Shown: positions 1 through 44,425 of the stretch, in pieces
How positions within the stretch are numbered: position 1 is the stretch's first letter
Layout of the letters: each line of letters opens with the position of its first letter
Source of the DNA: a virus
Virus record (IMG/VR): IMGVR_UViG_3300045988_051365
Reading direction: 5' to 3' (one strand)
Length of the DNA: 64,000 nt
Made by a program: the position numbers and the translations under genes
The notes under the pieces: generated by a model
Databases searched by the model: none
The model's input: only the letters and a program-made list of their open reading frames with translations
Told to the model about the DNA's origin: nothing

Positions 1-1951
1 TCTTCCTTAGCCAATTGAAGAACTTAATTGCAGACAACTTGAAACACATAGAACCAGCATGTTGTATCGGATAGTTAATAGATTGCTTCATGGAATCAGA
101 TAACCTTCTTCTCAAATGCTGTGAGCTTGTCTTATAATAATTGTCCCCATTACGCCCTAGCATATACTTAGCTTCAGGAGACCCAAGTTCACTGTCGATT
201 TTACACAGATTGTCCCAGTCATATATAAATGCCTTATGCTTAGTAATAGGATTAAGAAGGATATATCCCTTATCAAGGACATCTTCTCTCCTAAACTCCT
301 GATATCTCTTTAGTCCAGAGAAACCAGACATATAGTTATTATATACTTCTTGAGCTCTTGCCTTAGTAAGACCATAATTCTTCATTAAAGTGTTCCAATC
401 TCCACCATAATTAAAACAAAATTCATACCCTTTAGCAGCATCTCTAAGAGGTTTATATTTAGCTTTAACTTCAGATAGTGGAGTGTCATCGGGGATGTCT
501 GTAAATACTATTCTGGCAGTTAGACTGTGTAAGTCACCACTACCATAGATAAGCTCTTCCAACATCGCCTTATCATTGGCAATAGATGCCATTAAGAAAG
601 ACTCCTGTCCTTTATAATCACAACTAATCCATTTATACCCAGTATCAGAAATGAAACACGACCTAGTAAATGGGTCATGCGGCAAATTCATTAAAGACGG
701 GTTAGTAGCGGATAACCGCCCAGTATCAGCTCCTAATTGAAAATAGTCTGGATGAATCCTACCACTTACTGGATTAATTTTATCTATGAACTTCTGTCCA
801 AAGGTATCAACTAGAATTTTAGCCTTCTTATATTCTACATAAAGAGGAACTATACTACACTTATGTGCTTGTGGCTTTATCAACTTAATATCAGCAGATT
901 TCTTCTTCTGCTTAGTTTTAGCATCAATGGTAGTACAATTAAGTCCCAACATTTCAAATAGTGGAACTACTTGTTGACTACTAGACCAGTTAATGTTACA
1001 CTTAGCTGAAGCATCAAATCCACTGAACAAATCGCCTTGTAGATTCTTGGTAACATATGGGAAAGGTTTGTCATATTCATAGTGAATTAATCCGGTTTGC
1101 GGATTACAAACTCTCTTTATTTGTCCCATATGAGGGCCTACTTTGTCAAATAGTTGATTCTCATGCATAATGTCCACTTCCTCTGTGCAGGCTTTAATAT
1201 AGCCTTCAGAAGATTTATGTTCATTATAATAATTTTCAACCCACTCGTTAAGCTTAGCTTCTGCTTTATTAACTTCCTCCTTATCTCGAATCATTTTCTG
1301 CTTCCATTTTACTGGGTCAAGTTTAGCTCCACAATATTCCATATAGGCAATTACTGGGGTAAACTTCATTTCAAATTCGGCAGCTTTAGTTAATTCCTTC
1401 TTCTCTAATTCTGCATCTTGCTTCTCTTTAATCTTAGTAAGATACATAACATCACCAGCAGCATATTGTACCACTGGTATGGTTAATCCTTGAGTGATAA
1501 TCTGCCCTCGAACAGTTTTATCAATATCTATACCAAGATAGTTATCAGCTGCCGCTTTTAAAGAAAGACTATGAAACTGGGGAGGATAGCCAAGATAGAG
1601 TAACTTCTCAGCAATCATTCCATCCCATACATTATAAGGAACTATTTTATGGTGATATAAAAACCTTAAATCAAATGCAATATTCCAACCTAAGAAAGTC
1701 TTAGTAGGGTCTTCAAGGACACATTTAAGCTTCTCAATTGGAATAGTTACATTGTCAACAACTATTTGGTCTTCCCCTAAACCATACTGAGTACACAGTA
1801 ATGGTTTTGTATAGGGGTCTAAACCAGCAGTTTCTGAATCATATTCTACCCAACTATGTGGCATAATCATGTCTATAGCATCAGATAGAGATAATTCCTT
1901 ATAAGCGTCAGTTTCAAATAGTGACCTTTGATTACTGACTAGATATATCAT
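1..1951 (-). CDS. Family A (PolA-type) DNA polymerase with N-terminal 3'-5' proofreading exonuclease. The C-terminus runs off the window start. Possible DpoZ-type enzyme.
   Basis: There are no stops in the minus frame from 1951 down to 1. My own translation starts MIYLVSNQ... It shows Exo I (EYDSETAGLD), Exo II (GWNIAFDL) and Exo III (YAAGDV) motifs. It also shows the PolA motifs RLSATNPSLMNLP (motif A region), YKPLRDAAKGYEFCFNYGG (motif B) and NYPIQHAGS. The ATG at 1951-1949 overlaps the TGA of the upstream ORF (ATGA). Confidence 0.85.
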   Translation of the reverse strand, partial: MIYLVSNQRSLFETDAYKELSLSDAIDMIMPHSWVEYDSETAGLDPYTKPLLCTQYGLGEDQIVVDNVTIPIEKLKCVLEDPTKTFLGWNIAFDLRFLYHHKIVPYNVWDGMIAEKLLYLGYPPQFHSLSLKAAADNYLGIDIDKTVRGQIITQGLTIPVVQYAAGDVMYLTKIKEKQDAELEKKELTKAAEFEMKFTPVIAYMEYCGAKLDPVKWKQKMIRDKEEVNKAEAKLNEWVENYYNEHKSSEGYIKACTEEVDIMHENQLFDKVGPHMGQIKRVCNPQTGLIHYEYDKPFPYVTKNLQGDLFSGFDASAKCNINWSSSQQVVPLFEMLGLNCTTIDAKTKQKKKSADIKLIKPQAHKCSIVPLYVEYKKAKILVDTFGQKFIDKINPVSGRIHPDYFQLGADTGRLSATNPSLMNLPHDPFTRSCFISDTGYKWISCDYKGQESFLMASIANDKAMLEELIYGSGDLHSLTARIVFTDIPDDTPLSEVKAKYKPLRDAAKGYEFCFNYGGDWNTLMKNYGLTKARAQEVYNNYMSGFSGLKRYQEFRREDVLDKGYILLNPITKHKAFIYDWDNLCKIDSELGSPEAKYMLGRNGDNYYKTSSQHLRRRLSDSMKQSINYPIQHAGSMCFKLSAIKFFNWLRK

Positions 1952-3340: not shown

Positions 3341-3517
3341 TCAGTCATTTGGAACTACATCTAAATCTGTCAAATAAAATGCATTGTCGTTTAAATCTCT
3401 TTGTACGAAGTATCCGTTAACTTCGACAGTTTCTCCTTTAAGAGTATGTATAGTTACTTCTCTGTCTTGGTCATACTTTTGGAGAATTTCAATCAGTTGT
3501 CCTACAAGTATTGCCAT
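3341..3517 (-). CDS. Small ORF of 58 aa, not in the track. It begins TAATG-overlapped with the Pnkp stop.
   Basis: My own translation is MAILVGQLIEILQKYDQDREVTIHTLKGETVEVNGYFVQRDLNDNAFYLTDLDVVPND. It ends in ATGA overlap with another 55-aa ORF. Confidence 0.3.
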   Translation of the reverse strand: MAILVGQLIEILQKYDQDREVTIHTLKGETVEVNGYFVQRDLNDNAFYLTDLDVVPND

Positions 3518-4443
3518 TAGAACTTACCCTCATTCGGTTGTAGACAAATCAAGCCTTCATTTCTCCACATCTCCACACACTTACAATTGTCTTCAAGTAC
3601 GAAAGGTATATAGAACTTGCCTTTGATATTATCCTCATACAGTTTCTTCTTACATATAGGACCAGCAGTAAAGCTCTTAGCAGGACGCATGAGAAGTATG
3701 TCAGGATGCAACCAATTGTTCTCTAACCACTGTTCCGTAGCTTTACGAACTTCAGGAGTATCCTCTCTACCAGTTAGAATTATTAACTTAGCTGGATAGT
3801 TATCACAGAAATTTCTAATAAGCTCAATGACAGGAGTAATAGGCTCATCAGTAAGCATACCTTCAGCTGCACCTTCTCCGTAGAAGGGACGGCCACTAGT
3901 ATTTAAACATACAGTTGCATCCATATCTACTATGATTGCTGCTGGTAGGTTAGTGTCTTGAACTAGTGTTCTAGCTTTAGCAGCCATGATTTCTTCATGA
4001 ATTATGAAGTCTTTATAGCGTCTCCAGGTCTGCCTAATAACCTTCTCACCTATAGGATGTTCTCTTTTAGCATCACGACGAACACACTCATCTACGGGAA
4101 TCCAGAAATCTTTGTATTCAATTTCATACTTCCAATCGTAGGTATAATTCTCGTTAAAGTCCTTAACCATCTTCTCTAACTCTGCACAAGTCTTAGGATT
4201 AAGGTTCATATTATCAACTACAATATTATAACCTTTCTCCATACTATAAGCTAGTACAGTGTTATAAGTTGCAGTGACAACATTCTCTCTACTAGGAACC
4301 CAATAGTCTCCTAACATGTTACGAATATCGTCATTGTTAAATCTTACTCTATGCTCCGGGTCTTCATGACACCACTGCTTAGCAAAACTAGTTTTGCCAC
4401 TTCCCTGAATTCCTCTACAGATTACTAATACTCTAGTTTCCAT
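3517..4443 (-). CDS. pnkp: Polynucleotide 5'-kinase / 3'-phosphatase, T4 PseT-like
   Basis: N-terminal P-loop CRGIQGSGKTSF. C-terminal HAD phosphatase motif IIVDMDATVC (DxDxT). Length and domain order match T4 Pnk. Confidence 0.85.
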   Translation of the reverse strand: METRVLVICRGIQGSGKTSFAKQWCHEDPEHRVRFNNDDIRNMLGDYWVPSRENVVTATYNTVLAYSMEKGYNIVVDNMNLNPKTCAELEKMVKDFNENYTYDWKYEIEYKDFWIPVDECVRRDAKREHPIGEKVIRQTWRRYKDFIIHEEIMAAKARTLVQDTNLPAAIIVDMDATVCLNTSGRPFYGEGAAEGMLTDEPITPVIELIRNFCDNYPAKLIILTGREDTPEVRKATEQWLENNWLHPDILLMRPAKSFTAGPICKKKLYEDNIKGKFYIPFVLEDNCKCVEMWRNEGLICLQPNEGKF

Positions 4444-4841
4444 TAATCAATATTACATAAAACATCACTAAATCCGCTATAATCTAAGTCAGCTAAAATG
4501 TCTCGTATAAATGATATGTAATCTCTAGTACTTTGTAAATCCCGTATATACTCTTTAGTGGATATTATCTCCTCTATAGATTCGGGATTACCATAACAGA
4601 ATTTCTCGTATTCTGTACGTCTAGTTTCTGCTTTAGTAATGTCAGCATCAATGTCTTGAATTACTGATTCAACATCACTAATAGTGAGTTTAGTATACTT
4701 CTCCTCATTACCAGCATATGCTATATTGAGATTGTCAGAGAATCTCTGATATACCTCGTTAGACCTACTAAATGATTGAAGTAGTAACTTCTCCTCCGGA
4801 TGTGCCCTAGGCACTAAGTAAAATGATAAATAACTACTCAT
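4443..4841 (-). CDS. Hypothetical protein, 132 aa
   Basis: ORF. TAATG overlap with the pnkp start. Confidence 0.5.
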   Translation of the reverse strand: MSSYLSFYLVPRAHPEEKLLLQSFSRSNEVYQRFSDNLNIAYAGNEEKYTKLTISDVESVIQDIDADITKAETRRTEYEKFCYGNPESIEEIISTKEYIRDLQSTRDYISFIRDILADLDYSGFSDVLCNID

Positions 4842-5614
4842 TTCTCGTTAGTTGGCTTAAGCCATAAATTGGTCTTACTAAAGATATAATCTCTAAGTCT
4901 TGGAAGGTAATCAAGATATGTTAAGGTTCTAATGGTATTGCATCTAAAACACTTAATCAGTTCCTCTCTAATTCTCTCCTCTGACACTACTGGCATTTTA
5001 GAATCATAATCATATAACACCATAGCTTGCCAAGTTGTTTGCTCTATTGTGAATCTCTTAGTAACCGCAAACCTAATGGCTCTAAGTATCCTAAGAGGGT
5101 CATCATCGAATGTTGTTACAGGGTCAAGGGGAGTTCTTATCAAAGCATTCTTTATATCATGCTTACCATAAAAGTAATCAATGATTTTTCCAGTATCGGG
5201 GTCTTTAGCCATAGCATTGATAGTGAAATCTCTGCGTGATAAATCATCATACAGATTTCCTGGTTCTACTATAGGAGTCCTAGTACCTGGAACATATCCT
5301 ACTTCCTTTCTAGCCATTACAAAATCTGCTACACCCTGGTACTTGTATCCTCCTGGAAACTTAGCACGTATAGTATAGCAATCTGGAGTTACTAAGAAGA
5401 TTTCAAAGCCTTCTTTCCTCAAATGACTTTCTAACATAGTGAAGACTGCATTAGTAGTATTTGGATAGATTCCGTCCACCAAACATTGTGCTTCCTCTAT
5501 ATTACGCAGTAACTCCTCACTGGGCACAGCAACATAATCAACATCCTTATTGGTAAGACCTAGGAGTTCATCTCTAATCTTACCGCCTACTTCATAAAAT
5601 TTAAAATCTTCCAT
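4838..5614 (-). CDS. cca: tRNA nucleotidyltransferase (CCA-adding family, class II). Short form with head and neck domains only.
   Basis: Motifs GGKIRDELLGLTNKDVDYV (GGxxRD...DxD), RRDFTINAMA and DPLRILRAIRFA. Confidence 0.8.
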   Translation of the reverse strand: MEDFKFYEVGGKIRDELLGLTNKDVDYVAVPSEELLRNIEEAQCLVDGIYPNTTNAVFTMLESHLRKEGFEIFLVTPDCYTIRAKFPGGYKYQGVADFVMARKEVGYVPGTRTPIVEPGNLYDDLSRRDFTINAMAKDPDTGKIIDYFYGKHDIKNALIRTPLDPVTTFDDDPLRILRAIRFAVTKRFTIEQTTWQAMVLYDYDSKMPVVSEERIREELIKCFRCNTIRTLTYLDYLPRLRDYIFSKTNLWLKPTNEK

Positions 5615-5874
5615 TAATAAAAATAATCTGATTCAACTTTCTGAATAATCTTCTCTCTGCTTCCTTTTAGACTATAGCCACTACGTTCGTTGCTACGTTC
5701 GTAACAACTAAAGTATTCTAAAACTTCATGTACTAAAAGATTAAAACTATGATTCTCGAAGTGATGCCCATCCACATCAATAGACCAACCACATCCATCT
5801 AACCACCTATACACATTTAGATGCTTACCATTAACATGATTCGGAAGGTTTGCTAATAGTGACAGATTATCCAT
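5614..5874 (-). CDS. Hypothetical protein, 86 aa
   Basis: ORF in the collinear block. Confidence 0.45.
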   Translation of the reverse strand: MDNLSLLANLPNHVNGKHLNVYRWLDGCGWSIDVDGHHFENHSFNLLVHEVLEYFSCYERSNERSGYSLKGSREKIIQKVESDYFY

Positions 5875-5893
5875 TCTCTAATATTATAACAAT

Positions 5894-6286
5894 TTACCAG
5901 TCATACACACAACCGATTACTTGCTTCTCTTTAACGAACTCATACAACTCATTAATACCTTCATCCCATGTTATATCTGAATATGGCACATAAGAATAGT
6001 CTCCATGTTCTCCGTCTTTAAAATAAGACTTGTCCATATAGTTCATATATTTAACAGTTGAATACCTATCAAAGTAATCATAGCTATCCATGAAAGTAGG
6101 AAGTTCTATCCAAGGAGCTATTGGTAATAAATCATAGACAGTCAGCAGGTCAAGAGCTACCTCCTTAGAGATAGCTCCTTCGTCTGCCTTCTTAAATATT
6201 TCTTTAGCGAACCCAGCCTTGAACTGGTTCAATTTCTCCTTCATCGACTCTAGAGTCCGAATTTCTTTGTCTAAGTCTTCCATCAT
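5894..6286 (-). CDS. Hypothetical protein, 130 aa
   Basis: ORF. Confidence 0.45.
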   Translation of the reverse strand: MMEDLDKEIRTLESMKEKLNQFKAGFAKEIFKKADEGAISKEVALDLLTVYDLLPIAPWIELPTFMDSYDYFDRYSTVKYMNYMDKSYFKDGEHGDYSYVPYSDITWDEGINELYEFVKEKQVIGCVYDW

Positions 6287-6587
6287 ATATTAATATGAGT
6301 TTATCAAATTCTTCATCTGTTCCTTCATAAGGAGTAATTTTATAGTTGTAGTAATCTTCCCACTCGATACTATCAACTACCTGTCTTATAGCTTCTTCAG
6401 TCATGTTATGATATTCATAACCTTCTGTAGTAACTATAAACGAATCTGGAACTATACCAACTGCAATTTCAAAAGCGTACGCATCAGCTGCATTGTTCAT
6501 GTCTTCATCAAACAAGCTCTCTGCGTATGCAGCATATCCACTATATGTTTCGAAATCATTAATGCAAGTTATAATATACCTGTTCAT
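6204..6587 (-). CDS. Hypothetical acidic protein, 127 aa
   Basis: ORF. Overlaps its neighbours in different frames. Confidence 0.45.
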   Translation of the reverse strand: MNRYIITCINDFETYSGYAAYAESLFDEDMNNAADAYAFEIAVGIVPDSFIVTTEGYEYHNMTEEAIRQVVDSIEWEDYYNYKITPYEGTDEEFDKLILIYDGRLRQRNSDSRVDEGEIEPVQGWVR

Positions 6588-7972
6588 TGGTCAGATTCTA
6601 TATCAACTTCACCTTTATCTAATGCTTTAGATTCTGCAAATAAGAATCTATTACATTTTAACTTATATGCCCCAGACAGACCGTCTTCTATACGAATTAC
6701 TATACCTTCATGTGGCACATCATTGTGACACTCCGGAGATAGTTCTTCCATGAAGAAATTCTTGTCCTCGGCTAATCTTTGTATGAAATTCTCATTCCAG
6801 TGTTCAGATACAGATATATCCGGATATAAATCCTTCGCATATCCATAATACAGTTCTGTTACCGGAGTGAGGCCCTTATCTTTACACCATTGTTGCACTT
6901 GTCTAGCACTAAATTCATACACTATTCCGTCAGGATTAGTATAAGTAATACGGTACACTCTGATACCAAAATGCACATTATACTTATATGGAGTAGTTTG
7001 AGTAGTAGGGTCCCATATCGGCATATCGTAACCATAATCATAAGCTTTACCTCCCATTGACTGAATTGCTCCTCCAGTAGGAAGCCAGCCTATAATTTCA
7101 TAATAAAGAGTTAATCCTTTAGTTAAAAATGGCTGTAATACTTTATGAGCTTCTCCCCACACATCACAGCCATAGTAACCCTCACTAACTTCCTTATTAT
7201 AATATTGGTTCTTTACAACCTTTCTAGAGGACCACAGATAGTCGTATGCAGTGTCAGGTACATAGGTAAGCCAGCCAGCCACCTTGTCTTTCCACTTCAA
7301 TTGCCTTTTGCATAACACATCTGCTGATATTCCAGACGTGCCATGAACTTTACTAGTAATACTAATAATGTCGTTTGGCTTAATTATCCATGGACACTTC
7401 TTAATAAGAATAGTATCGTAGTGGAATCTAAACTGATTGTCAACTAACTTGCTCAACCCTTTAGGCTGTTTACCAGTTCTAGTTTTATTGCTGGAGCCAG
7501 AAGTTCTATTCTTTAATACGTACTTCTTACAAATAAACAGGTTTCCTACCCTATCAAATTCAGTGCCGGCATCTATTCCAGTTACAGCTTCGGTATGTCC
7601 AAGAGAGCTTATCCATTTAGTAATGGACTCTATAGACATAATAAATCCTTCTGAAACATGGCCCTGCAACTTAATAATCTTCACTCTTCCGTTATCTTCG
7701 AAATACCCAGGTGCTGCCTCCTTGTCAGCATTCAGCTCAATATGTCTGAACTGGTTATTAGCTGACAAGAAAGAATAGTCAATAGCACATCCTATAGGGA
7801 AATACACATACATTCCAGGTTCTGTATCTTTACTAACCGAAATAGTATATCCGTCTATATGAGCACATTTAAGACGCTCGCACTTAGGGTTTGGGTGTGG
7901 TGTAAAATCGTGGATTTCTACAATCTTAGCACAATAGTTAATATTGATTTTAGGTGATTGATTTAATTGCAT
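6584..7972 (-). CDS. ATP-dependent RNA ligase (Rnl2-like nucleotidyltransferase motif I) with an N-terminal extension
   Basis: KVHGTSG matches the KxHGT lysine-adenylation motif of Rnl2-type RNA ligases. The gene sits beside pnkp and cca. Confidence 0.55.
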   Translation of the reverse strand: MQLNQSPKININYCAKIVEIHDFTPHPNPKCERLKCAHIDGYTISVSKDTEPGMYVYFPIGCAIDYSFLSANNQFRHIELNADKEAAPGYFEDNGRVKIIKLQGHVSEGFIMSIESITKWISSLGHTEAVTGIDAGTEFDRVGNLFICKKYVLKNRTSGSSNKTRTGKQPKGLSKLVDNQFRFHYDTILIKKCPWIIKPNDIISITSKVHGTSGISADVLCKRQLKWKDKVAGWLTYVPDTAYDYLWSSRKVVKNQYYNKEVSEGYYGCDVWGEAHKVLQPFLTKGLTLYYEIIGWLPTGGAIQSMGGKAYDYGYDMPIWDPTTQTTPYKYNVHFGIRVYRITYTNPDGIVYEFSARQVQQWCKDKGLTPVTELYYGYAKDLYPDISVSEHWNENFIQRLAEDKNFFMEELSPECHNDVPHEGIVIRIEDGLSGAYKLKCNRFLFAESKALDKGEVDIESDQ

Positions 7973-8964: not shown

Positions 8965-10173
8965 TTATTCATAGTCTCGGATGCACTTAAGTACTGGTTG
9001 TAATGGTCTGCCATCGTCAGAGTAGTAGAAATACTTGACAGTAGCCATTTTACCGATAAGTTCATCCATTCTGTCTAGATATTCATACTTAAGTTCTCTA
9101 GGTCCCATAGGCTTGGCTTCAAATTCCTTACCAGCCTGAGTCTTACATATGAACACCATATCTTCAGGACGTAATCCGTCACTATAGCCAACAATCTCAA
9201 ACTCGTCGTCTTGATACATTTTGACTTTAATCATGGCATTAGTACGTCCTCCATAGTTATATGGTTTGTCCGGGTCTCTAATAACTATACCTTCAAACCC
9301 TTCGCTGACATATTTATCATGAAGCTTCTGAATGTTAGTCCACCCTACTACTTCCTCTTCTGGAACTATTCTAACCTTCAGGTCATCTTCATTCCAATTA
9401 GCATTAGGGTCAAAATCCACAATTCTAAGTATAGGAGCTATTTCGTCAGATATATAATTCCACCTTTCCTGTGCTGTCATATTAGCATCCATGGTATCAT
9501 AGATGTAATATTCCAATTCATTGCAGCGGGATTCTCCAGATTCTAATCTTGCTGTACCACTTATATACTGCAAGCTTCGACCGTGAATGTAAAGTTCACC
9601 ATCGAGAACCAAATCTGGCATCTTATTAAATAACTCTATCATCTTGGGATGTGTTCTTAGGTGTACTGTAGAAGCGTCATAATCGCCACCTCCCCGACTA
9701 GCAGATACTATCTCTCCGTCCTTTAGATAGAAAGAACATCTGACACCGTCTATCTTACGAGAACCTAGCCAGTACTTGATTTTATCAAATACCTTAGTAG
9801 CTACCTCCTCGTACTTCTTGGCTTTCATATGCTTCTTAAATCCATTTGAATCAGTAACACCCTCACCTAGGTGTTCTTCAACAAATGCTGCAACTGCCTT
9901 CGCATCCTCTATGTTAACAGAGGACGGAAGTAGCTTATAACCCTTATCTGTATACTTCTTTAGATGAGAATTGTACTCTAACTTAGCCTGTTCTGCAACA
10001 GTCCTTTTGGCTTTGCCTTGGAATATCCATATCTCTGGCTGCACAGTTACTTTGCCACCATACTGATAAGTCTTTCTTCTTATAACAAAGCCATGTTGGG
10101 CATCATCCCATTCGCAACTAATCTCGACTACTCTAGTTTTACCCTTGTTGTCTTTAGTTACTAATTTATCCAT
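8965..10173 (-). CDS. ATP-dependent DNA ligase (T7/T4-like)
   Basis: Motif I KIDGVR (KxDGxR) around residue 150, within SRKIDGVRCSFYLKDGEIV. Size fits the small phage ligases. Confidence 0.65.
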   Translation of the reverse strand: MDKLVTKDNKGKTRVVEISCEWDDAQHGFVIRRKTYQYGGKVTVQPEIWIFQGKAKRTVAEQAKLEYNSHLKKYTDKGYKLLPSSVNIEDAKAVAAFVEEHLGEGVTDSNGFKKHMKAKKYEEVATKVFDKIKYWLGSRKIDGVRCSFYLKDGEIVSASRGGGDYDASTVHLRTHPKMIELFNKMPDLVLDGELYIHGRSLQYISGTARLESGESRCNELEYYIYDTMDANMTAQERWNYISDEIAPILRIVDFDPNANWNEDDLKVRIVPEEEVVGWTNIQKLHDKYVSEGFEGIVIRDPDKPYNYGGRTNAMIKVKMYQDDEFEIVGYSDGLRPEDMVFICKTQAGKEFEAKPMGPRELKYEYLDRMDELIGKMATVKYFYYSDDGRPLQPVLKCIRDYE

Positions 10174-36867: not shown

Positions 36868-36887
36868 AATAACTAATAATTGGTTTG

Positions 36888-36961
36888 TGACTCAGGTGGG
36901 GCTCTAACCCACAACCCTCTCCTTAGGACGGAGATGCTCTATACTATTGAGCTACTGAGCC
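36888..36961 (-). tRNA. tRNA-Arg (anticodon CCT)
   Basis: Manual fold. Acceptor GGCTCAG/CTGAGTC, D stem GCTC/GAGC, anticodon stem TCTCC/GGAGA with loop GTCCTAA. T loop TTAGAGC is atypical. Confidence 0.55.
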
Positions 36962-36968
36962 TTGAAAG

Positions 36969-37328
36969 TTATACGTTAATATTCCCAGTGTGTCTGCCTT
37001 TTACTTTAACAGAGTTAGCATCAATGTCTCCTTGTACATTACCACCAACCTCAATACTGTTAGCTTCTATAGAACCTCCCACATTGCCTTTAACACTATT
37101 ACCATGTACAGCAAATGCGTCTCCGTCAATATCACATGTGTTGCAGTTAAGCTCTTTTACGTTACCAGTAAAACTGATATGTACACTATCCTTATTCGTT
37201 TCAGATATTAATTTACCATTTACGTAAATTTTACGCTTGATTTGTGAGATAGTGATATTGTCCTCTTCAATGTTATAGGACTCATTATCAATAAATAACT
37301 TATTCATGATTCTTTTTATCCAGTTCAT
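36969..37328 (-). CDS. Bactofilin-like (polymer-forming beta-helix) protein
   Basis: Repetitive GNVKE..C..CDIDGDAFAVHGNSVKGNVGGSIEANSIEVGGNVQGDIDANSVKVKG pattern, typical of bactofilin/DUF583. Confidence 0.5.
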   Translation of the reverse strand: MNWIKRIMNKLFIDNESYNIEEDNITISQIKRKIYVNGKLISETNKDSVHISFTGNVKELNCNTCDIDGDAFAVHGNSVKGNVGGSIEANSIEVGGNVQGDIDANSVKVKGRHTGNINV

Positions 37329-37927
37329 CTTCCTTCGTAATACTTAATCAGTTTATCAAATGCTTCAATCCTAGCATTATGACCCTTCTCGTCATCGGGA
37401 GTCCACCAAAATGCCTTACCATACCTGTCTTTAGGTGCGCCTAAGAACTCTCTATTGAACTCTGGAAACATAGCAACTACATCACGTTCATCATAGATGT
37501 TGATTCCTCTTTCTGTGCCAGCCATAGCATGTTCAATGCAGAAACACATTCCCCAGTATTCTGAATGGTCTTCAAACAGCTTCTTAGCTTTTAGTAAGAT
37601 AGTGTGCTTATTGGTTCTTTCTGTGTACCAATGGATGAGTTTATCGAAGGCTATAAGCCTGTGTTTCTTCTCATCTACGGGCCACCAGAAGACAAGTCTA
37701 GCCACTTCTTCTTGTTTGACATTACCTCCTAGAAACTCTGGATTAAACTCCGGAATTAGTGTTACTAATTCATTATAAGAGGGAGGTATTCCTTCTTTAA
37801 ACACTCCGTTGAATGCTTGCTTCATATAGTGGCACATACCACCATTCTTATCACTACCTGGCTTTGTATCTTTATCGTACAAGTCTTTAGCAGTCTTTAA
37901 TCTTTTAATAATTTCTAAGTTAGTCAT
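37325..37927 (-). CDS. Hypothetical protein with an internal tandem duplication
   Basis: Two copies of the PEFN(P/R)EFLG...FWW(P/T)(V/P)D(E/D)(K/E)(K/G)H..(I/R)(A/I)(A/E)FDKLI..Y module. Confidence 0.5.
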   Translation of the reverse strand: MTNLEIIKRLKTAKDLYDKDTKPGSDKNGGMCHYMKQAFNGVFKEGIPPSYNELVTLIPEFNPEFLGGNVKQEEVARLVFWWPVDEKKHRLIAFDKLIHWYTERTNKHTILLKAKKLFEDHSEYWGMCFCIEHAMAGTERGINIYDERDVVAMFPEFNREFLGAPKDRYGKAFWWTPDDEKGHNARIEAFDKLIKYYEGR

Positions 37928-37947
37928 CTCTTTCCTTATTAAGTTAG

Positions 37948-38019
37948 TAGTCCCAGGCAGAGTCGAACTGCCATTTCAGGTTCCGTAGACCAGCGTTCTA
38001 TCCATTGAACTATGGGACC
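37948..38019 (-). tRNA. tRNA-Arg (anticodon ACG)
   Basis: Manual fold. Acceptor GGTCCCA/TGGGACT, D stem GTTC/GAAC, anticodon loop CTACGGA, T arm GGCAG-TTCGACT-CTGCC. Confidence 0.75.
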
Positions 38020-38165
38020 ATACAGGAAGCAATTCCGATTTAACGGCCGCCCTTGCCAGTATCACGTACTGGGCTTTTCACGTGGACGGTCTGTCAGCAT
38101 AACTCACAGTATTACTTACATGCTTCCTTTAATTTTAGCCTCTTCCAGCGCAAGAGCACTTATAG

Positions 38166-38432
38166 TCACTCTTCGCCATAGTACATCAAGTATAGTACCT
38201 GCTGACGCAAACCATATCTACGTGTAACCACGTTAGCTTCCGCTCTCCTGGAAAGCGCAGCATTGATACTCCTCTTGAGTTTATCGGCATCAAATAGCAA
38301 ACCAGTCACTCCTACTAATCCATTAAGCTCATCAGCGCAGATGTAATCTACTGCTTCAAAGAGCTGGGCTTTAGTTTCAGAGCTGTTCACCTTCTGCCAT
38401 TTCTTTATTTCCTTCTCGAAGTCCATAATCAA
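38166..38432 (-). CDS. Hypothetical protein, 88 aa
   Basis: ORF. Confidence 0.45.
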   Translation of the reverse strand: MIMDFEKEIKKWQKVNSSETKAQLFEAVDYICADELNGLVGVTGLLFDADKLKRSINAALSRRAEANVVTRRYGLRQQVLYLMYYGEE

Positions 38433-38803
38433 TTAAGTGCTTCAAGTTCTTTAGCTAATTCTTCCAGAGATTTGCCTTCGAGTTCAGCGTCTTGTTTCTT
38501 AGCCATAAGGTCAAGAATCTTCTGACGCTTAGCTTTCTTCTCACTTTCAAGTAGACGGTCTTCCTGTTCTTGCAACTTAACATCAATAATGTGTTTTGCA
38601 ATATTGAATTTCAGTTCAAGTTCGGTAGTGTCTTTAGTCCGGGTTTTGATGAAGCTTTCAGTTTTAGACTCTTGCAATTTCTTGTTAAGAGCAATTGCAA
38701 TATTGTCAAGTTGAATTAAGGGTAAATCCCACAAGTCTTCAACAGAAAGAACTCCACGTTGCGTGTTAAAACGCAATTTCATTCTAGATGCTTTCTCAAA
38801 CAT
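38429..38803 (-). CDS. Hypothetical coiled-coil protein, 124 aa
   Basis: ORF. Confidence 0.45.
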   Translation of the reverse strand: MFEKASRMKLRFNTQRGVLSVEDLWDLPLIQLDNIAIALNKKLQESKTESFIKTRTKDTTELELKFNIAKHIIDVKLQEQEDRLLESEKKAKRQKILDLMAKKQDAELEGKSLEELAKELEALN

Positions 38804-38805
38804 AA

Positions 38806-39744
38806 TTATAGCATTAAATTGTTAATACGTTTATATTCTTCAAACACTTTGTCCTCTGATTCTTCTCCCCACATACTGTGAATGAGAATACCATAAGCAC
38901 AAGGCTGGTACACAATAGGGTCTACTGCCTTCTTAGTGATTGTAACCTCTGGATTGTTTAATTGACTAGGAGGGCAAGCTACAAATAGCTCATTTCTACC
39001 TATCTTAACAGCATCAAAGGAAACTATGTTAGGGTAGCTAAAAGCCTTTACATCAGCAGGAAGGCCGGGATTCTTGTTAATTATACTAGACAGCCTGAGT
39101 GTGCCTTCTATATCAGGGCCAATAACTATGTGATTGTGTGATTCTATGTATTTCTTCAGATTGTTCAACATAGTTTCACTGTCATTGTATCCGTAGTTAA
39201 TACCTGTAACATAATAATACGCCCCATTAGCATACTCCAACCCTAAATCAGAGAACATTGGTCCTTCACCATTAAGTTTACGCTTAACTTCTAAGATTTC
39301 TCTAATATTACGGTCAGGAATCACTCCAGTGTACTGTTTTAGTAGACCTTTGACAAGTTTATACTTCTTACAAACATCATCAAATTGTTTAGAGCCAACC
39401 AGAAGAGTACTCTCTCCGAATACCTCTCTTGCACGCTTTACGAAACTAAATAAGTTTTTAGCACGCATGGCATCCAGAGCTATCTGATTATATTCAGATA
39501 TTTTAGCCTGTAATAGCCTAGCATTCTTTGAGCTACCTAGCCCAGCATCAACCAACGTGTTGTATTCTCTTACTAATGTATCTCTATTAGGAATATCAAC
39601 TGATGTCTTGGAAACAGAACGTAGATATTCCTCCATACATAAAGCAAGAGCCATAGCTATGTTGGACTGAATAGTCATCACCGGCACGTCAACCACTTCT
39701 GGAGTTATAACTTCAGAATCATTGCGTTTTAGAAATCTAAACAT
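38806..39744 (-). CDS. Paralog family member A (conserved C-terminal ...IHSMWGEESEDKVFEEY)
   Basis: Shares architecture and C-terminal motif with 41761..42627 and 46868..47719. Confidence 0.55.
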   Translation of the reverse strand: MFRFLKRNDSEVITPEVVDVPVMTIQSNIAMALALCMEEYLRSVSKTSVDIPNRDTLVREYNTLVDAGLGSSKNARLLQAKISEYNQIALDAMRAKNLFSFVKRAREVFGESTLLVGSKQFDDVCKKYKLVKGLLKQYTGVIPDRNIREILEVKRKLNGEGPMFSDLGLEYANGAYYYVTGINYGYNDSETMLNNLKKYIESHNHIVIGPDIEGTLRLSSIINKNPGLPADVKAFSYPNIVSFDAVKIGRNELFVACPPSQLNNPEVTITKKAVDPIVYQPCAYGILIHSMWGEESEDKVFEEYKRINNLML

Positions 39745-41756
39745 CAGAAATTGACTTTTAAAGTTCTACTAAATGTTCCGTCCACTTTAACAATAACGGA
39801 ATTACGCATAGTAGATGAGAATCCTAATCCACTCAATTGATGTTCTTGGTAAGGAGTCTTCATCTTATCAGCTAGAACCTCAAATACCTTACGGTGAGGA
39901 GTTAGCTCACTGTTAAGATATTCGTTAAAGAATCCACGAACAGGCTCCGGATTCTTGCAATCATCCAACATAAAGAAGTAATGTTTATTGCCAATACCCT
40001 GCTCATCCCAATAATTGGGAGACAGCATCATCACGTTCACCTTATGGAACTTGTTAGTATCAATATTCCATAGGCTTACTGACGAATGGCTAGTACTGGG
40101 TATTAGCTCTCTTATTTGGATGCCTTTAGATTTACTGTAAGTAATCTCGGCAACCATGACATTCTCTTTATGTTTAACGGGTTTGTCATAGACAAATTGT
40201 CGGACTTCTCCATTGTGTTCTATTTCCAATGTAAATCCTGTATCAACAGATTCTCTACAATGAAAGTTATTAACATACACAACATACTTACCTTCAAGCA
40301 TCTTGCGTTCGTTAACCCATATAATGTTCTCAACGGGTTTGCGAGTTTTGCCATATCCGGCATTTTCATCCACGTCTAGCTTACCACCACTTCTGCCAAT
40401 TCTGTTGGAGTAATAAATTTCAAGATTATTAGGTTCAACGACATGCAAATCCAAGTCATCATAGTTAGACCATGCCAACGAACATCTTAAGAAACCTTCA
40501 GTCTGACCACCAGCAGCTCTTACTTTCTCTTTAATAGAATCAGCTACCCCTCCATTATATGTCCAAGCAAAGTTGTTCGGCCATTTAAATAGATTCTTAG
40601 CATCCTTGTTAACAGGAGCTGTAAGAGTTACTAAGTTATTGGACAATCTACTTTCCATTAACACTTCTATGTTAGTGGCAGTGGGTACCACATTAGCAAT
40701 GAAATCATCAATGCTAATTTCAGTTAACTTGTCAAACTTCTTAGGATTAACTTTAGTGTCTGCGGCCAGTTCTTCGAATATATTTCCAGCCATTACCTTC
40801 TTGGCATCACGATTAGCAAATATAACATTGTTGACTGTTATATCCTCTAAGGCAGCATGTCTACGAGGTAGAGAATCCATAAGACCTAGTTCCTGCACTT
40901 TCTTCTGTGCTTCCTCAATCATTCTTTTAGTAACAATTGACTTAGGTCTTTGATAGTTCTCTGGAGCCATGATACGTTCGTATGCAGTCACACAATCGTC
41001 CAGTTCAAGTCCTGATGATATATTTACCAACAATGTACCAATTGCCGTATTACGAATGCGTGCACATCCTACACGATTGAAGTTTGCCCAACACCAGTTG
41101 TCTTTCTCTTCATCAGGTAATGAATCATAGTGTCTTTTATGACCCAGGAATACACTTAAGTCATTTTTAAACTGTTCTCCTCTATATAAAGCATTCTGAC
41201 CTATTAAGTCCAGAACTGTTTCTATAGAATCGATAGTTAATTCCTCCAGTGCACGTTTGAACACTTCCTTAGTTGTGCGTAAAGTCCCCATTACAGCAGA
41301 TACGGATTCAGTTCCTGTATACACCAATTGATTTGGCATATGATAGTAAAGATGATTCCAGGTAATTACTTTAGGACCTTGCAAACTGTCAATATAGGCA
41401 TTGTTTCTATCAATTCCTAGTTCATAATCACGAGTGATAAAAACATCTACAACTGGTTTTGATTTCACTAATGCATCGAGATTTCTAGCTACAGTAGCAT
41501 AAGGTTCATCCAACTGTAGGTTCTCCCACATGGTTACTACTTTATTGTCTTTAATGGCGACAACTCTACCATAATGTCTGATATAATGTTTACAATTGTT
41601 GCAATTATGAGACTGTCTCTCTTCCTCCGGAAAGGAATTAAGGTAACAATCCCATAATGCATCCTTGTCTACATTAGTCAGAAAGAGCATGTCTACACCA
41701 GCAGCTAGTTGATTAAACTGCGCATGGACTGCTCTTTTAAACTTGAGAAATTCCAT
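39744..41756 (-). CDS. Large hypothetical protein of 670 aa, flanked by paralogs A and B
   Basis: Long ORF with no motif I can assign. Confidence 0.6.
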   Translation of the reverse strand: MEFLKFKRAVHAQFNQLAAGVDMLFLTNVDKDALWDCYLNSFPEEERQSHNCNNCKHYIRHYGRVVAIKDNKVVTMWENLQLDEPYATVARNLDALVKSKPVVDVFITRDYELGIDRNNAYIDSLQGPKVITWNHLYYHMPNQLVYTGTESVSAVMGTLRTTKEVFKRALEELTIDSIETVLDLIGQNALYRGEQFKNDLSVFLGHKRHYDSLPDEEKDNWCWANFNRVGCARIRNTAIGTLLVNISSGLELDDCVTAYERIMAPENYQRPKSIVTKRMIEEAQKKVQELGLMDSLPRRHAALEDITVNNVIFANRDAKKVMAGNIFEELAADTKVNPKKFDKLTEISIDDFIANVVPTATNIEVLMESRLSNNLVTLTAPVNKDAKNLFKWPNNFAWTYNGGVADSIKEKVRAAGGQTEGFLRCSLAWSNYDDLDLHVVEPNNLEIYYSNRIGRSGGKLDVDENAGYGKTRKPVENIIWVNERKMLEGKYVVYVNNFHCRESVDTGFTLEIEHNGEVRQFVYDKPVKHKENVMVAEITYSKSKGIQIRELIPSTSHSSVSLWNIDTNKFHKVNVMMLSPNYWDEQGIGNKHYFFMLDDCKNPEPVRGFFNEYLNSELTPHRKVFEVLADKMKTPYQEHQLSGLGFSSTMRNSVIVKVDGTFSRTLKVNF

Positions 41757-41760
41757 AATC

Positions 41761-42627
41761 TTATAAAGGTTTGATATTGTCGAATATATTGTCCTCGGCT
41801 TCTACTCCCCATTTAGAATGAATCATTACTCCTATTGGAGTTACTTGAAACACAAATGGGTCATTATTGATAGGAATAATCTTCCTTTCCGGAACTGTAA
41901 ACTGCATCGTTTCATTCATTTCTTCAATAGGAGCGGCAATGAATAAGTCAGCACTGCTACATTCTTTTGAATCAGCAATGTTCACATCATGTGCCTTGGC
42001 TTTATTAAGGATATGAAAGAATGGATATGCATTCATTCTAGCCTTATTTCTACTCAAATACATAAGTCCAATATGGGAAGGTTCCTGCCTAATGAAGTAC
42101 CTTCCAACCGGATAGGACATGCTATCAATAGGCATAGGGTGAGTAGCAACTTGCATACCAGTAACATACCGTAAAGGTGAACCGTTTCCGCTATAGTTAA
42201 CATACTCATTTGCTTCAAGTGCTTGAGCAGTGGCCATTACCTTAGAGATTTCATCAATGTTCTCGTCAGGCACAGAACCTTTATAAGCTGATAGTCTTCC
42301 AACAACTAATCCATACTTAACATTCAGATTAATGAAATCCTCCTCCTTAAGTATCAATGAGCCAGGAAAATGTCTTTGCAAGAAGCTATAACATTTTAAA
42401 ACTTTAAGGTCCTCTTCCGAAGTGATAGCATCACCTACTTCTTTAGAATTAGTAAATCCTAAAGCTTTCAGTTTGACAGCCTTATCAACTAGTTGATGAT
42501 TCGGATTCAGACCCTTAATAGTCTTCATGTACTCTACAGCCATTAGAGTATAAGCTAATTGCACTTCTTGGGCTGTGAATCTCTTTGTGCCTACAGACGT
42601 ATCTGTAGAAGGACTAAAATTGTTCAT
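41761..42627 (-). CDS. Paralog family member B (...GVMIHSKWGVEAEDNIFDNI)
   Basis: See 38806..39744. Confidence 0.55.
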   Translation of the reverse strand: MNNFSPSTDTSVGTKRFTAQEVQLAYTLMAVEYMKTIKGLNPNHQLVDKAVKLKALGFTNSKEVGDAITSEEDLKVLKCYSFLQRHFPGSLILKEEDFINLNVKYGLVVGRLSAYKGSVPDENIDEISKVMATAQALEANEYVNYSGNGSPLRYVTGMQVATHPMPIDSMSYPVGRYFIRQEPSHIGLMYLSRNKARMNAYPFFHILNKAKAHDVNIADSKECSSADLFIAAPIEEMNETMQFTVPERKIIPINNDPFVFQVTPIGVMIHSKWGVEAEDNIFDNIKPL

Positions 42628-42747
42628 AATTACTTTTGTTTAACTGAACCTGGTCTGGTAGTAGCTCTCTTAAATGAATCAGATTGCTTATCCCACCAAG
42701 CCTGTCGGTCTTTAAGACGTTGTACTTTCTTCTTGTATTTCATAGGT

Positions 42748-43173
42748 TTATCCTATTTCGTTACTAGCATTATAAGCAAGCTTGTCGGCTTCCTTATTAT
42801 GTTCATCACTTGCGTGACCTTTACACCACTCAACAGACACTACTTTATGCCTGTTCACAGCCTTATCAAGACGTTCCCACAAATCAGTATTGGCTTTCCT
42901 CTTCCACCCTTTAGTAAGAGTTCCTACAATATACATAGAATCTGTTACTATTGTAATTTCGGAAGGTTCCTTTATGGATTCCAGGGCAACTATGACAGCC
43001 ATTTGCTCCATTCGCTGATTGGTGCTGTTCTTATACATCTTACTGTATTGGAATATCTTTTTGTCATCCTCTAAAATGACAAAGCCTATTCCCCCTTGAT
43101 TTCTCGCAGGGGAATAGGCACCATCACAATATACCCTATACGAGTGTTTAACAGTATTCCCATTTAAAGCCAT
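42748..43173 (-). CDS. rnh: Ribonuclease H (RNase HI-like)
   Basis: YCDGAYSP...GGIGFVI, EQMAVIVALE, TDSMYIV, and WCKGHASDEHNKEADKLA with the conserved D/E/D/H/D residues. Confidence 0.8.
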   Translation of the reverse strand: MALNGNTVKHSYRVYCDGAYSPARNQGGIGFVILEDDKKIFQYSKMYKNSTNQRMEQMAVIVALESIKEPSEITIVTDSMYIVGTLTKGWKRKANTDLWERLDKAVNRHKVVSVEWCKGHASDEHNKEADKLAYNASNEIG

Positions 43174-43696
43174 AACATGTTTTAGCTTTTCCTTTACAGC
43201 AATCAGATATGTGTCTATGAGACTTAATACCTAAAGCTCTAGCTGCTTCTCTGATTCCATTCCAGACATTAATAATTTCACCATCTAAAGACACCTGTTT
43301 AACTCTAATCTTCTTGGCTTCATTCATCTTCTCTGGGATACGACTGTAATGATTGTTATAGCACCTGGAACACCACTCCAGATTGGAAACTCTATTGTCG
43401 GTCTTAATTTCGTTTATATGATTTATATCTGTAAATCCGTCGGGGTTTGGTATAAATGCTTCGGCAACTAATCTATGAACATTCCTGTTTCTACGAGTTT
43501 TGTTCTTAGTTAGCATAACTTTCACGTAACCATTACCACTTCTGGTAGGAGCTAGTATTTTACCTTTGACCAGGCGTGTTTTACCTCCTCTACAACCAAC
43601 AATTTTATCGTAGCTTCTCACATTACCTAACGTAGAAACTTGATAGAGTCCTTCATATCCAGTAATATCCTTCCACTCTTCAGACTTACTAGACAT
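43148..43696 (-). CDS. HNH homing endonuclease (NUMOD4 + HNH)
   Basis: NUMOD4 motif WKDITGYEGLYQVSTLGNVRS. HNH core HRLVAEAF...INHINEIKTDNRVSNLEW. Confidence 0.75.
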   Translation of the reverse strand: MSSKSEEWKDITGYEGLYQVSTLGNVRSYDKIVGCRGGKTRLVKGKILAPTRSGNGYVKVMLTKNKTRRNRNVHRLVAEAFIPNPDGFTDINHINEIKTDNRVSNLEWCSRCYNNHYSRIPEKMNEAKKIRVKQVSLDGEIINVWNGIREAARALGIKSHRHISDCCKGKAKTCYGFKWEYC

Positions 43697-43704
43697 GAAT
43701 AAAA

Positions 43705-44235
43705 TTATGCGTCGGCATTAGGATTCTCAACAAAATCCTCATCATCCTCATCTTCTTCGGTTTCGGATATGACATCCTCATCAATAAGATGCTTAACCCA
43801 CATACCTAAGATAAAGATGACATAGAATTTGTCTTCCTCCTGTTTGTAGTTAACCTTGTCAGAGACTTCATTAACTACATCTAACATTGTGAACTCCTCT
43901 TTAGCTATAGCATCATCAGCTATAGCAGACATTTCTTCTACATAAGGTCTAGCCTTCTGCATCGCTTCGTCAAAACTCTTTACTAAGGCTATGCCTTCAT
44001 CACCTCTAATCTGCATAGCAACAGATAGAGGTTGTTGCAATTCATTTCTAAAGAAGCCCAAATAGAAAGCTTTCTCTACATTTCCGTTCACGAAGTCATT
44101 GAAAGATTTAGCTTTCATTACTTCTTCTACTTTGAAATCAATTTCTGATACGTCTCTGATTTTGTCCATAATGTTATGATAGCAACCCACCAATCTTCTC
44201 GGCCATGGCTGTTGCTTTGTTAGAAACTGCTTCAA
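43705..44235 (-). CDS. Hypothetical acidic protein, 176 aa
   Basis: ORF. Confidence 0.5.
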   Translation of the reverse strand: MKQFLTKQQPWPRRLVGCYHNIMDKIRDVSEIDFKVEEVMKAKSFNDFVNGNVEKAFYLGFFRNELQQPLSVAMQIRGDEGIALVKSFDEAMQKARPYVEEMSAIADDAIAKEEFTMLDVVNEVSDKVNYKQEEDKFYVIFILGMWVKHLIDEDVISETEEDEDDEDFVENPNADA

Positions 44236-44425
44236 GGTTTGCAGCTTCAGTTTGTAATTCGATAATCTCTTGTTCTCTAACCTCTTTCTCTGCTTGAGCT
44301 CTAGATGCTACCTCTTTAAGATTGGTAACAGCTTTCTCAAATACATCAATAATCTTAGCTGATTCCTCGGCTAGTGAGGTACTTGTTACTTTAGCCGGTT
44401 CGGCTGATTGTTTCTTTCCAAACAT
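44174..44425 (-). CDS. Hypothetical coiled-coil protein, 83 aa
   Basis: ORF. Confidence 0.4.
   Translation of the reverse strand: MFGKKQSAEPAKVTSTSLAEESAKIIDVFEKAVTNLKEVASRAQAEKEVREQEIIELQTEAANLEAVSNKATAMAEKIGGLLS

Follow-up and report, generated by a model that had tools for sequence, protein, structure and literature searches.

A human-gut phage, probably a Bacteroidales phage of about 117 kb, carries in a region that appears to be a conserved early or middle one a contiguous set of genes for a kinase-phosphatase (Pnkp), a tRNA nucleotidyltransferase of CCA-adding type and an RNA ligase predicted to be of the Rnl5 type. We put at roughly 0.55 the probability that this block keeps RNA, most plausibly tRNA, functional, with Pnkp and Rnl5 healing and sealing broken molecules and a separable CCA part completing the phage tRNAs. 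The window analyzed is a 64,000-nt stretch, read on one strand, of the IMG/VR record IMGVR_UViG_3300045988_051365. The features considered are the following:

1..1950, minus strand: family A DNA polymerase, N-terminal part, context (open frame 1-1957, running off the window)
3517..4443, minus strand: predicted Pnkp, bifunctional polynucleotide 5'-kinase / 3'-phosphatase of T4/Pnkp1 type, 308 aa (Pfam, PHROG, alignments with proteins of solved structure, motifs)
4443..4841, minus strand: small ORF of 132 aa between the CCA enzyme and Pnkp (no family match)
4838..5614, minus strand: predicted tRNA nucleotidyltransferase of class II and CCA-adding type, 258 aa, with head and neck only (PolyA_pol, phrog_24229, motifs A-E)
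5614..6587, minus strand: three small ORFs of 86, 130 and 127 aa separating ligase and CCA enzyme (no family match)
6584..7972, minus strand: predicted ATP-dependent RNA ligase, Rnl5 type, 462 aa, N-terminal OB and C-terminal nucleotidyltransferase domains (predicted fold and motifs)
8965..10173, minus strand: ATP-dependent DNA ligase, context, where the tightly packed block starts (Pfam DNA_ligase_A_M, E 4.3e-16; phrog_114, E 5e-49)
36887..63412, minus strand: 23 tRNA genes in an array, without encoded CCA (ARAGORN)

The RNA-repair block is tightly packed and flanked by the DNA ligase and the family A DNA polymerase, whose translation contains 3'-5' exonuclease and polymerase A motifs; genes for a helicase, a primase, an exonuclease, NrdD and a dUTPase lie in the neighborhood. 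The three enzyme ORFs occupy exactly the positions given in the initial annotation, all on the minus strand, and are probably co-transcribed. Scans for sigma-70 promoters and terminators returned sites no commoner than in shuffled sequence, Bacteroidales promoters being outside the coverage of the scan. The 132-aa ORF overlaps both neighbours, at its start and at its stop, and has no match in Pfam, PHROG or NCBIfam; family searches with the 86-, 130- and 127-aa ORFs likewise gave no match.

T4-type Pnkp enzymes work on DNA ends as well as RNA ends; T4 Pnkp removes a 2',3'-cyclic or 3'-phosphate to leave a 3'-OH, and turns a 5'-OH into a 5'-phosphate. Judged by its sequence, the ORF at 3517-4443 encodes an intact kinase-phosphatase of this type. 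It covers the whole Pfam HAD_PNKP profile (positions 1-143, 88.8 bits against a cut-off of 27.6), matches AAA_33 over its N-terminal kinase (E 3e-14) and belongs to phrog_505 (E 1e-56). It aligns over its full length with Pnkp1 of the Capnocytophaga Pnkp1-Rnl-Hen1 complex (4xrp, E 8.7e-32), its closest solved relative, and with T4 Pnkp (1ltq, E 7.8e-15), a member of the same family with which it shares both active sites. The kinase P-loop G11-IQGSGK-T18 is present, D38, R41 and RRDAKR 122-127 align with the T4 catalytic residues D35, R38 and R126, and the DxDxT nucleophile motif of the C-terminal HAD phosphatase reads D173-M-D175-A-T177. Both domains and their active-site motifs thus bear out the initial call of a T4 PseT-like enzyme. 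Capnocytophaga and the presumed host of the phage belong to the same phylum (Bacteroidota), but the phage module lacks the cognate Rnl and Hen1 2'-O-methyltransferase that characterize the bacterial system.

The ORF at 6584-7972 had been proposed to encode an Rnl2-type RNA ligase. An RNA ligase it appears to be, but its architecture is that of Rnl5. The curated Rnl5-type profile did not recognize the protein: TIGR02306 (RNA_lig_DRB0094) gave 25.9 bits over residues 17-119 only, below its cut-off of 151. Searches against solved structures, with the single sequence and with a 38-sequence profile, returned only chance matches to antibody chains, and the family was therefore assigned by predicted fold. 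The modelled chain has an N-terminal OB domain of tRNA-binding, Trbp111-like type and ends in a nucleotidyltransferase domain, without any C-terminal appendage; this is the Rnl5 signature. Motifs I, III, IV and V (K208VHGTS, with K208 as the motif I lysine; YYE292IIG; HE422G423IVIR; YK437LK439) are invariant in 38 homologues. Fold and motifs place the protein in a divergent phage clade of Rnl5 (phrog_968), about 120 residues longer than DraRnl/NgrRnl, with 18% identity, a disordered linker (155-169) and insertions. An Rnl2 identity, as in T4 Rnl2 or the kinetoplastid RNA editing ligases, was rejected on the missing Rnl2-type C-terminal domain, the accessory domain being the N-terminal OB fold; the Rnl1 fold with its tRNA-specific C-terminal domain was not found either.

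To our knowledge, DNA repair is the only known physiology of Rnl5 ligases, whose physiological role the literature calls unknown, and for this reason replication-linked nick repair is a real, although unlikely, rival to RNA repair. Pnkp would then clean 3'-phosphate/5'-OH ends, and Rnl5 would seal nicks with a ribonucleotide 3'-OH end, such as might arise when gaps are filled with rNTPs, both acting with the DNA ligase and PolA on phage DNA while the CCA enzyme rides along as an unrelated passenger for tRNA maturation. The position of the genes between DNA ligase and PolA, amid those for helicase, primase, exonuclease, NrdD and dUTPase, would suit this, as would the action of T4-type Pnkp on both DNA and RNA; on the other hand, a dedicated DNA ligase already adjoins, the OB domain of the RNA ligase is of a tRNA-binding type, and tRNA repair is the classical role of a phage Pnkp and RNA ligase. 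The biochemistry of Rnl5 also speaks for nick repair: it seals 3'-OH/5'-phosphate nicks in duplexes in a Mn2+-dependent reaction that requires RNA on the 3'-OH strand (PMC4408790, PMC5397189), and accepts DNA as the 5'-phosphate strand and as the template strand (PMC5397189). A DraRnl knockout is radiation-sensitive and delayed in genome reassembly (PMC5397189), which favours DNA as the target.

The third ORF (4838-5614) is, from its motifs, a class II tRNA nucleotidyltransferase with every catalytic motif but reduced to head and neck, as the initial annotation had suggested. The PolyA_pol head was detected with an E of 4.8e-18 and phrog_24229, a profile of length 245, with an E of 7.6e-66. 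When 34 homologues were aligned, the carboxylates D24, D26 and D97 proved present and invariant, motif A reading GGKIRD 10-15..D24-V-D26; motifs B (RRDFTINA 127-134), C (D146..G150), D (the amino-acid template, DDDPLRILRAIRF 170-182) and E (ERIREELIK 213-221) were invariant or nearly so. The protein ends 37 residues past motif E, without C-terminal body and tail, and all 34 homologues are likewise short (244-285 aa). Its AF2 model (pLDDT 87.2) has CCA-adding enzymes as top Foldseek matches, with a TM-score of 0.65 when normalised to the query and 0.46 when normalised to the target. The role of the flexible loop and the tRNA-binding body and tail domains of class II enzymes have been described (PMC8563995). 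Residues 102-126 can be aligned, gap-free, with the stretch of the Planococcus CCA-adding enzyme that holds this loop; a loop of normal length is by itself no proof of A addition.

Head, neck, motifs A-E and flexible loop are common to the phage protein and the class II enzymes of Geobacillus, Planococcus (6ibp/6qy6) and Thermotoga, whereas the phage protein lacks their tRNA-binding body and tail; in it, motif A is followed by a variable insertion of 20-45 residues, and the peptide LWLKPTNEK is conserved at the C-terminus. Many tRNA-rich phages have an annotated homologue. One that is just as short, at 244 aa, is gp032 of Cellulophaga phage phi4:1, whereas the enzyme of E. coli phage 4MG, where a short form near tRNA genes had been expected, is full length (417 aa), with no tRNA gene within the 40 kb examined. 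In the literature we found no biochemical study of a phage CCA enzyme without body and tail. The 132-aa ORF, downstream of the CCA gene, was considered as a split-off body/tail and rejected, as it has no family match and is missing from the majority of the relatives in which the CCA gene is retained.

ARAGORN counted 23 tRNA genes in the window, slightly fewer than the 25 or so first estimated; the large array itself stands. Their tails continue from N73-C74 with other bases (C74 in 23/23, C75 in 1/23, full CCA in 0/23), and tail calling was verified on mutated tails. Bacteroidales chromosomes show the same pattern, with C74 in 45/45 tRNA genes and no encoded CCA, and C74 is found in 23/23 tRNA genes of phi4:1; C74 was accordingly rejected as a phage-specific cue for a "CA-adding" enzyme. 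Our literature search yielded no report on C74 in the tRNA genes of Bacteroidota. A suppressor tRNA hinted at TAG read-through, and ORFs in the window were not appreciably longer under read-through.

Phage and host tRNA genes alike lack CCA, so that ordinary maturation already calls for a CCA-adding activity. The phage enzyme is thus more simply explained by completion and maintenance of phage tRNA 3' ends than, as first proposed, by defence against nucleases that clip them. The fuller form of that proposal, a single counter-defence module in which the CCA enzyme answers nucleases or toxins that clip or modify 3' ends, Pnkp and ligase repair anticodons and the tRNA array adds a further layer, seems to us less probable still than nick repair. 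The three genes are contiguous and co-oriented, tRNA-targeting defences are widespread and CCA-adding enzymes can rebuild trimmed 3' ends (PMC7824862), yet no host 3'-end nuclease was identified, and in phi4:1 the CCA gene has neither an RNA ligase nor a Pnkp gene next to it, with no Cellulophaga phage among the ligase matches listed.

Comparison with related phages separates a stable core from a variable insert. The block is syntenic across about 80 related gut-phage contigs, with DNA ligase in 76/80 loci and PolA in 69/80. The constant part is the RNA ligase with Pnkp, the latter occurring in 72 of 75 evaluable loci, while the CCA gene is present in 61 of 78 evaluable loci and missing from the module in 17, an argument against a single counter-defence module. 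Contigs whose module has no CCA gene include IMGVR_UViG_3300045988_081504, _057014 and _083081; contigs bearing the ligase number 1776 in all. That the module can do without it agrees with nick repair, but in most relatives this tRNA-specific enzyme is wedged precisely between ligase and Pnkp, and Mycobacterium phage 244 has this Pnkp-ligase pair outside any replication context; both points tell against nick repair. The 132-aa ORF occurs in only 28/80 loci and is therefore not an obligatory partner; the 86-, 130- and 127-aa ORFs are also poorly conserved (29, 36 and 28 of 80). No locus among the 80 has a tRNA gene within 10 kb of the ligase. In the search for tRNA genes of relatives without the CCA gene, a single-protein query with a PurZ-like protein returned only 98-100% relatives, and an alignment search with a 670-aa protein of the tRNA region, together with a tRNA-Glu 24-mer search, returned other clades and no CCA-less contig.

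The variable small ORFs between the genes, the changing gene content of the ligase-to-Pnkp interval and the coming and going of the CCA gene could also mean that three independent auxiliary genes simply gathered in a part of the early region that tolerates added genes. We regard such uncoupled co-location as the least probable reading, given the exact biochemical complementarity of Pnkp and ligase and an adjacency that is retained over deep divergence and recurs in actinobacteriophages.

Most likely, then, Pnkp and Rnl5 heal and seal broken RNA, most plausibly tRNA. If the phage Pnkp behaves like that of T4, it would leave 3'-OH and 5'-phosphate where metal-independent ribonucleases have produced 2',3'-cyclic or 3'-phosphate and 5'-OH termini. 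The ligase would adenylylate itself at K208, hand the AMP on to the 5'-phosphate and join the two ends; like its closest structural relatives, it would act on duplex-held nicks with an RNA 3'-OH strand. A candidate substrate is an anticodon loop cut, perhaps by a host anticodon nuclease, its halves held together by the anticodon stem. On the 23 phage tRNAs the CCA enzyme would supply, or replace when lost, C75-A76 or the whole CCA, supplementing the host enzyme. The T4 pathway, in which Pnkp/PseT and Rnl1 reverse PrrC cleavage of tRNA-Lys, likewise follows a heal-then-seal logic and is encoded by a lytic phage. A bolder version is doubtful, falling a little below the counter-defence module: the head-and-neck protein would be a minimal CCA- or CA-adding enzyme that reaches tRNA through the Trbp111-like OB domain of Rnl5 or through Pnkp, in a joint complex mending both anticodon-loop breaks and 3' ends. 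If true, it would be the first case of an Rnl5 ligase with a physiological substrate made of RNA.

Heal-and-seal RNA repair and phage CCA enzymes are textbook knowledge or already catalogued, and sets comprising RNA ligase, Pnkp, CCA enzyme and tRNAs have been described in phages before, so that the module itself is ordinary. Its interest lies in the deep conservation of the Rnl5-Pnkp pair, which often has a tRNA-specific enzyme encoded between its two genes: found in hundreds of abundant gut-phage contigs, the pair offers a tractable test of whether Rnl5 acts on RNA, DNA or both. A widespread class II CCA-type enzyme without body and tail also raises the question of how tRNA is recognized, and may provide a minimal scaffold for enzymology. 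In jumbo phages, RNA-repair sets of like composition, with an ATP-dependent RNA ligase, a PNK-HAD kinase-phosphatase, a CCA-adding enzyme and numerous tRNAs, were read as protection from RNases of the host (Iyer et al. 2021, PMC7824862). That text names Rnl1, Rnl2 and RtcB rather than Rnl5, and the present module differs from those sets in being physically contiguous and in residing in a non-jumbo gut phage of about 117 kb.

The window shares 93.8% identity, over the 6 kb tested, with MT835470.1 ("Bacteriophage sp.", 117 kb, human faeces, unannotated), and its weaker DNA relatives are phages of Bacteroides, Prevotella and Cellulophaga. Its G+C content is 35-41%, and nearly all genes lie on the minus strand. 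The three ORFs that the initial annotation had proposed as a tRNA end-healing and sealing module were all found where it had placed them. Pfam and PHROG matches revealed that replication and nucleotide-metabolism genes surround this module, including those for an ATP-dependent DNA ligase, dUTPase, a Dda-like helicase, NrdD, exonucleases, a primase and a DnaB-like helicase. The genes used as landmarks are as follows.

1-1957, minus strand: family A DNA polymerase (PolA), an open frame that runs off the window
3517-4443, minus strand: putative polynucleotide kinase-phosphatase (Pnkp), 308 aa
4838-5614, minus strand: putative tRNA nucleotidyltransferase (CCA enzyme), 258 aa
6584-7972, minus strand: RNA ligase (Rnl), 462 aa
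8965-10173, minus strand: DNA ligase
13928-15994, minus strand: NrdD gene

An HNH/homing-endonuclease-like ORF (16768-17946, minus strand; phrog_559, E 3e-83) sits just upstream of NrdD. Between the DNA ligase and PolA, neighbouring genes share 1-14 nt or leave gaps of at most 104 nt; a single apparent overlap of 83 nt probably reflects a mis-called start. A scan of this stretch detected no terminator-like site between genes on the minus strand, with terminator counts no higher than in shuffled sequence. Given this tight packing and the lack of intergenic terminator-like sites, co-transcription of the module with the polymerase is plausible. In relatives, the identity of PolA falls to 35-45% while the small ORFs on either side remain at about 70%, a sign that the replication module may be mosaic or subject to mobile-element activity.

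The Rnl ORF matched phrog_968 "RNA ligase" (E 8e-41). Pfam and NCBIfam matches were weak and confined to the N-terminal 100 residues; the OB domain of PHA02142 was matched with an E-value of 0.0045, and TIGR02306 (RNA_lig_DRB0094) with 25.9 bits, below its cut-off of 151. No related solved structure was found by sequence, using either the single sequence or a 38-sequence profile. We therefore relied on architecture: a confident AlphaFold2 model built from alignment A1 (pLDDT 85.6, pTM 0.81) displays the signature of Rnl5, namely an N-terminal OB domain and a C-terminal nucleotidyltransferase domain without C-terminal appendage, in a family defined by NgrRnl and Deinococcus DraRnl (PMC4408790). 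Motifs I (K208-x-H-G), III (E292), IV (E422-G423) and V (K437-x-K439) are invariant. By fold and motifs it is an Rnl5-type enzyme and not the Rnl2-type ligase initially annotated. Since architecture and motifs fit Rnl5 but the curated sequence model does not recognize the protein, it represents a divergent Rnl5 clade, with about 120 additional residues in a disordered linker and insertions. Taken alone, its OB domain resembles tRNA-binding OB modules (3bu2, PheRS beta, MetRS-C, CsaA and Arc1p). The family is large, with 1776 homologues (E <= 1e-5); the top scorers come from contigs of gut phages, several of which are 100-190 kb long. In GenBank, 379 phage records contain a member; most are of actinobacteriophages (where it is annotated "RNA ligase"), but Lak megaphages and XacN1 are among them too.

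The Pnkp ORF matched Pfam HAD_PNKP (88.8 bits, cut-off 27.6), a P-loop kinase domain and phrog_505, and aligned over its full length with Capnocytophaga Pnkp1 (4xrp, E 8.7e-32) and T4 Pnkp (1ltq, E 7.8e-15). It has the kinase P-loop, D38/R41, the RRDAKR segment and the phosphatase motif D173-x-D175-x-T, and with them every sequence hallmark of a T4-type Pnkp. These features bear out the proposed T4 PseT-like kinase-phosphatase and predict a bifunctional enzyme.

The third protein matched the PolyA_pol head domain and phrog_24229, as well as solved CCA-adding and A-adding enzymes (E about 1e-20), and is a class II tRNA nucleotidyltransferase. An alignment of 34 homologues (244-285 aa) showed (near-)invariant motif A (GGKxRDE...D24-V-D26), third carboxylate D97, motif B (RRDFTxNA), motif C, motif D template (DDDPLRxLR..RF) and motif E (ERIREE..K); the catalytic carboxylates D24, D26 and D97 are thus kept. 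The stretch from the basic/acidic pair to motif B aligns without gaps to the flexible loop in the CCA-adding enzyme from Planococcus and, considering the role of this loop (PMC8563995), CC-only activity is unlikely. The protein ends 37 residues past motif E, and its model (pLDDT 87.2) gave TM-scores against class II enzymes of 0.65 relative to the query but only about 0.46 when normalised to the targets, which have 370-420 residues. It therefore has a complete catalytic core of head-and-neck size but no body or tail, the domains that make up the tRNA-binding site of class II enzymes (PMC8563995), in agreement with the truncation initially noted. This short form is the rule in the window's phage family and is shared by gp032 of Cellulophaga phage phi4:1 (244 aa), whereas other phage enzymes, for instance that of E. 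coli phage 4MG, have the full length. Nearly all 34 short homologues keep a C-terminal LWLKPTNEK peptide (4838-4867, minus strand), predicted to be disordered (pLDDT <50), which may be a docking or interaction motif. In phi4:1, the short CCA enzyme gene immediately precedes gp031 (comparison segment L102, 8731-9882), annotated "polymerase" and matching a PARP catalytic domain (cd01437/PF00644); the next gene encodes an ATP-dependent DNA ligase, and a macro-domain protein is encoded elsewhere in that genome.

We compared 80 IMG/VR loci in which ligase identity ranges from 100% down to 54%. Gene order is retained: DNA ligase, small ORFs, Rnl, (small ORFs), CCA enzyme, Pnkp, small ORFs, PolA. Pnkp followed the ligase in 72 of the 75 loci that extend far enough, while the CCA gene was present in 61 of 78; in the 17 loci lacking it, about 700 bp filled with unrelated small ORFs separate ligase and Pnkp. 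Rnl5 and Pnkp therefore form the constant unit, with the CCA gene as an accessory insert. Conservation of the module's small ORFs across loci is poor, and none matched a family in Pfam, PHROG or NCBIfam. The pairing recurs in Mycobacterium phage 244, where about 270 bp separate a polynucleotide kinase gene from that of a same-family ligase, and neither is part of a replication cluster.

Because the chemistries of Pnkp and ligase are exactly complementary and their pairing is conserved, we favor a reading (probability about 0.55) in which Pnkp would heal breaks with 2',3'-cyclic or 3'-phosphate and 5'-OH ends, the Rnl5 ligase would seal them, most plausibly in tRNA cut in the anticodon loop, and the CCA enzyme would finish or renew tRNA 3' ends. 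That the three genes are merely co-located is most improbable. The main rival, repair of nicks in nucleic acid within the replication module, finds support in the preference of Rnl5 enzymes for duplex nicks with an RNA 3'-OH strand, DNA being tolerated elsewhere, and in the sole recorded in vivo Rnl5 phenotype, radiation sensitivity with delayed genome reassembly; whether Rnl5-like ligases repair DNA, RNA or both is unknown according to the same authors (PMC5397189). Yet the tRNA-type OB domain and the tRNA-specific gene wedged between Rnl and Pnkp argue for tRNA repair, as does comparative genomics of phage RNA-repair sets (PMC7824862), and we consider the rival unlikely.

The tRNA genes bear on the CCA enzyme. 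ARAGORN called 24 tRNAs between 36.9 and 63.4 kb, against the approximately 25 initially counted; 23 are credible, and the sole plus-strand call, tRNA-Arg(tcg) at 55365-55441, overlaps tRNA-Ser(gct) (55380-55468, minus strand) and is probably a false positive. A check confirmed that ARAGORN lengthens a tRNA call no further than the tail fits NCCA. C74 follows the discriminator in all 23 credible genes (strand C frequency 0.156), with C75 in 1/23 and CCA in none. Close and distant relatives share this pattern (C74 in 148 of 160 distinct genes of one distant clade), as do phi4:1 (C74 in 23/23, CCA in one) and Bacteroidales chromosomes sampled via a 16S-targeted scan (C74 in 45/45 genes, CCA in 4/45). 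Since the chromosomes show it too, C74 without CCA is a property of the host lineage that the phages did not invent. It has the look of a signal for 3' processing across the Bacteroidota, on which we found no paper.

Each phage tRNA therefore needs CCA-adding activity merely to mature, and the host must already supply such activity. Most simply, the phage enzyme would finish the 3' ends of the phage's own abundant tRNAs and keep them intact, and the same chemistry extends naturally to the repair of ends that have been trimmed. The integrated counter-defence module first suggested, directed against host tRNA nucleases, is accordingly less favored and quite improbable: the data do not require the CCA enzyme to be a dedicated defence against 3' clipping. 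An amber-suppressor tRNA with anticodon CUA (63340-63412, minus strand), called "Pyl" by ARAGORN, adjoins a tRNA-Met. Read-through of TAG lengthens no ORF noticeably in the window; any stop-codon recoding would therefore affect late genes outside it.

The module differs from the T4 Pnkp-Rnl1 system, and it is not the bacterial Pnkp1-Rnl-Hen1 system either, which has another kind of ligase and includes a Hen1, looked for here and not found. All its components belong to known families, as members or structural members, and phages combining RNA ligases, PNK-HAD proteins, CCA enzymes and tRNA arrays have been described (PMC7824862). A minimal CCA enzyme that relies on partner proteins within a complex repairing tRNA ends is very doubtful; if true, this reading would also mean that Rnl5 has an RNA as a physiological substrate.

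Other genes lie amid the tRNA array. An AAA/STAND-like ATPase (485 aa, 48684-50141) and an SPFH/Band-7 protein (653 aa, 55556-57517), both on the minus strand, are interspersed with tRNA genes. A short adenylosuccinate-synthetase homologue (355 aa, 50693-51760, minus strand; PF00709 E 8.8e-35, phrog_1211 E 2e-46) is PurZ-like, which makes a 2-aminoadenine (Z) genome possible; in that case the family A polymerase (1-1950) might be of the DpoZ type. Inside the array, a 670-aa protein (39744-41756, minus strand; phrog_1735, E 1.9e-261) has no Pfam domain but is conserved very widely, with 6989 representative homologues (E <= 0.001), and shows invariant Cys, His and Asp columns. Two relatives of it (97% and 50% identity) and two distinct tRNA sets occur in the 270-kb IMGVR_UViG_3300045988_069849; this contig probably joins two related phages in a chimeric or concatenated assembly.
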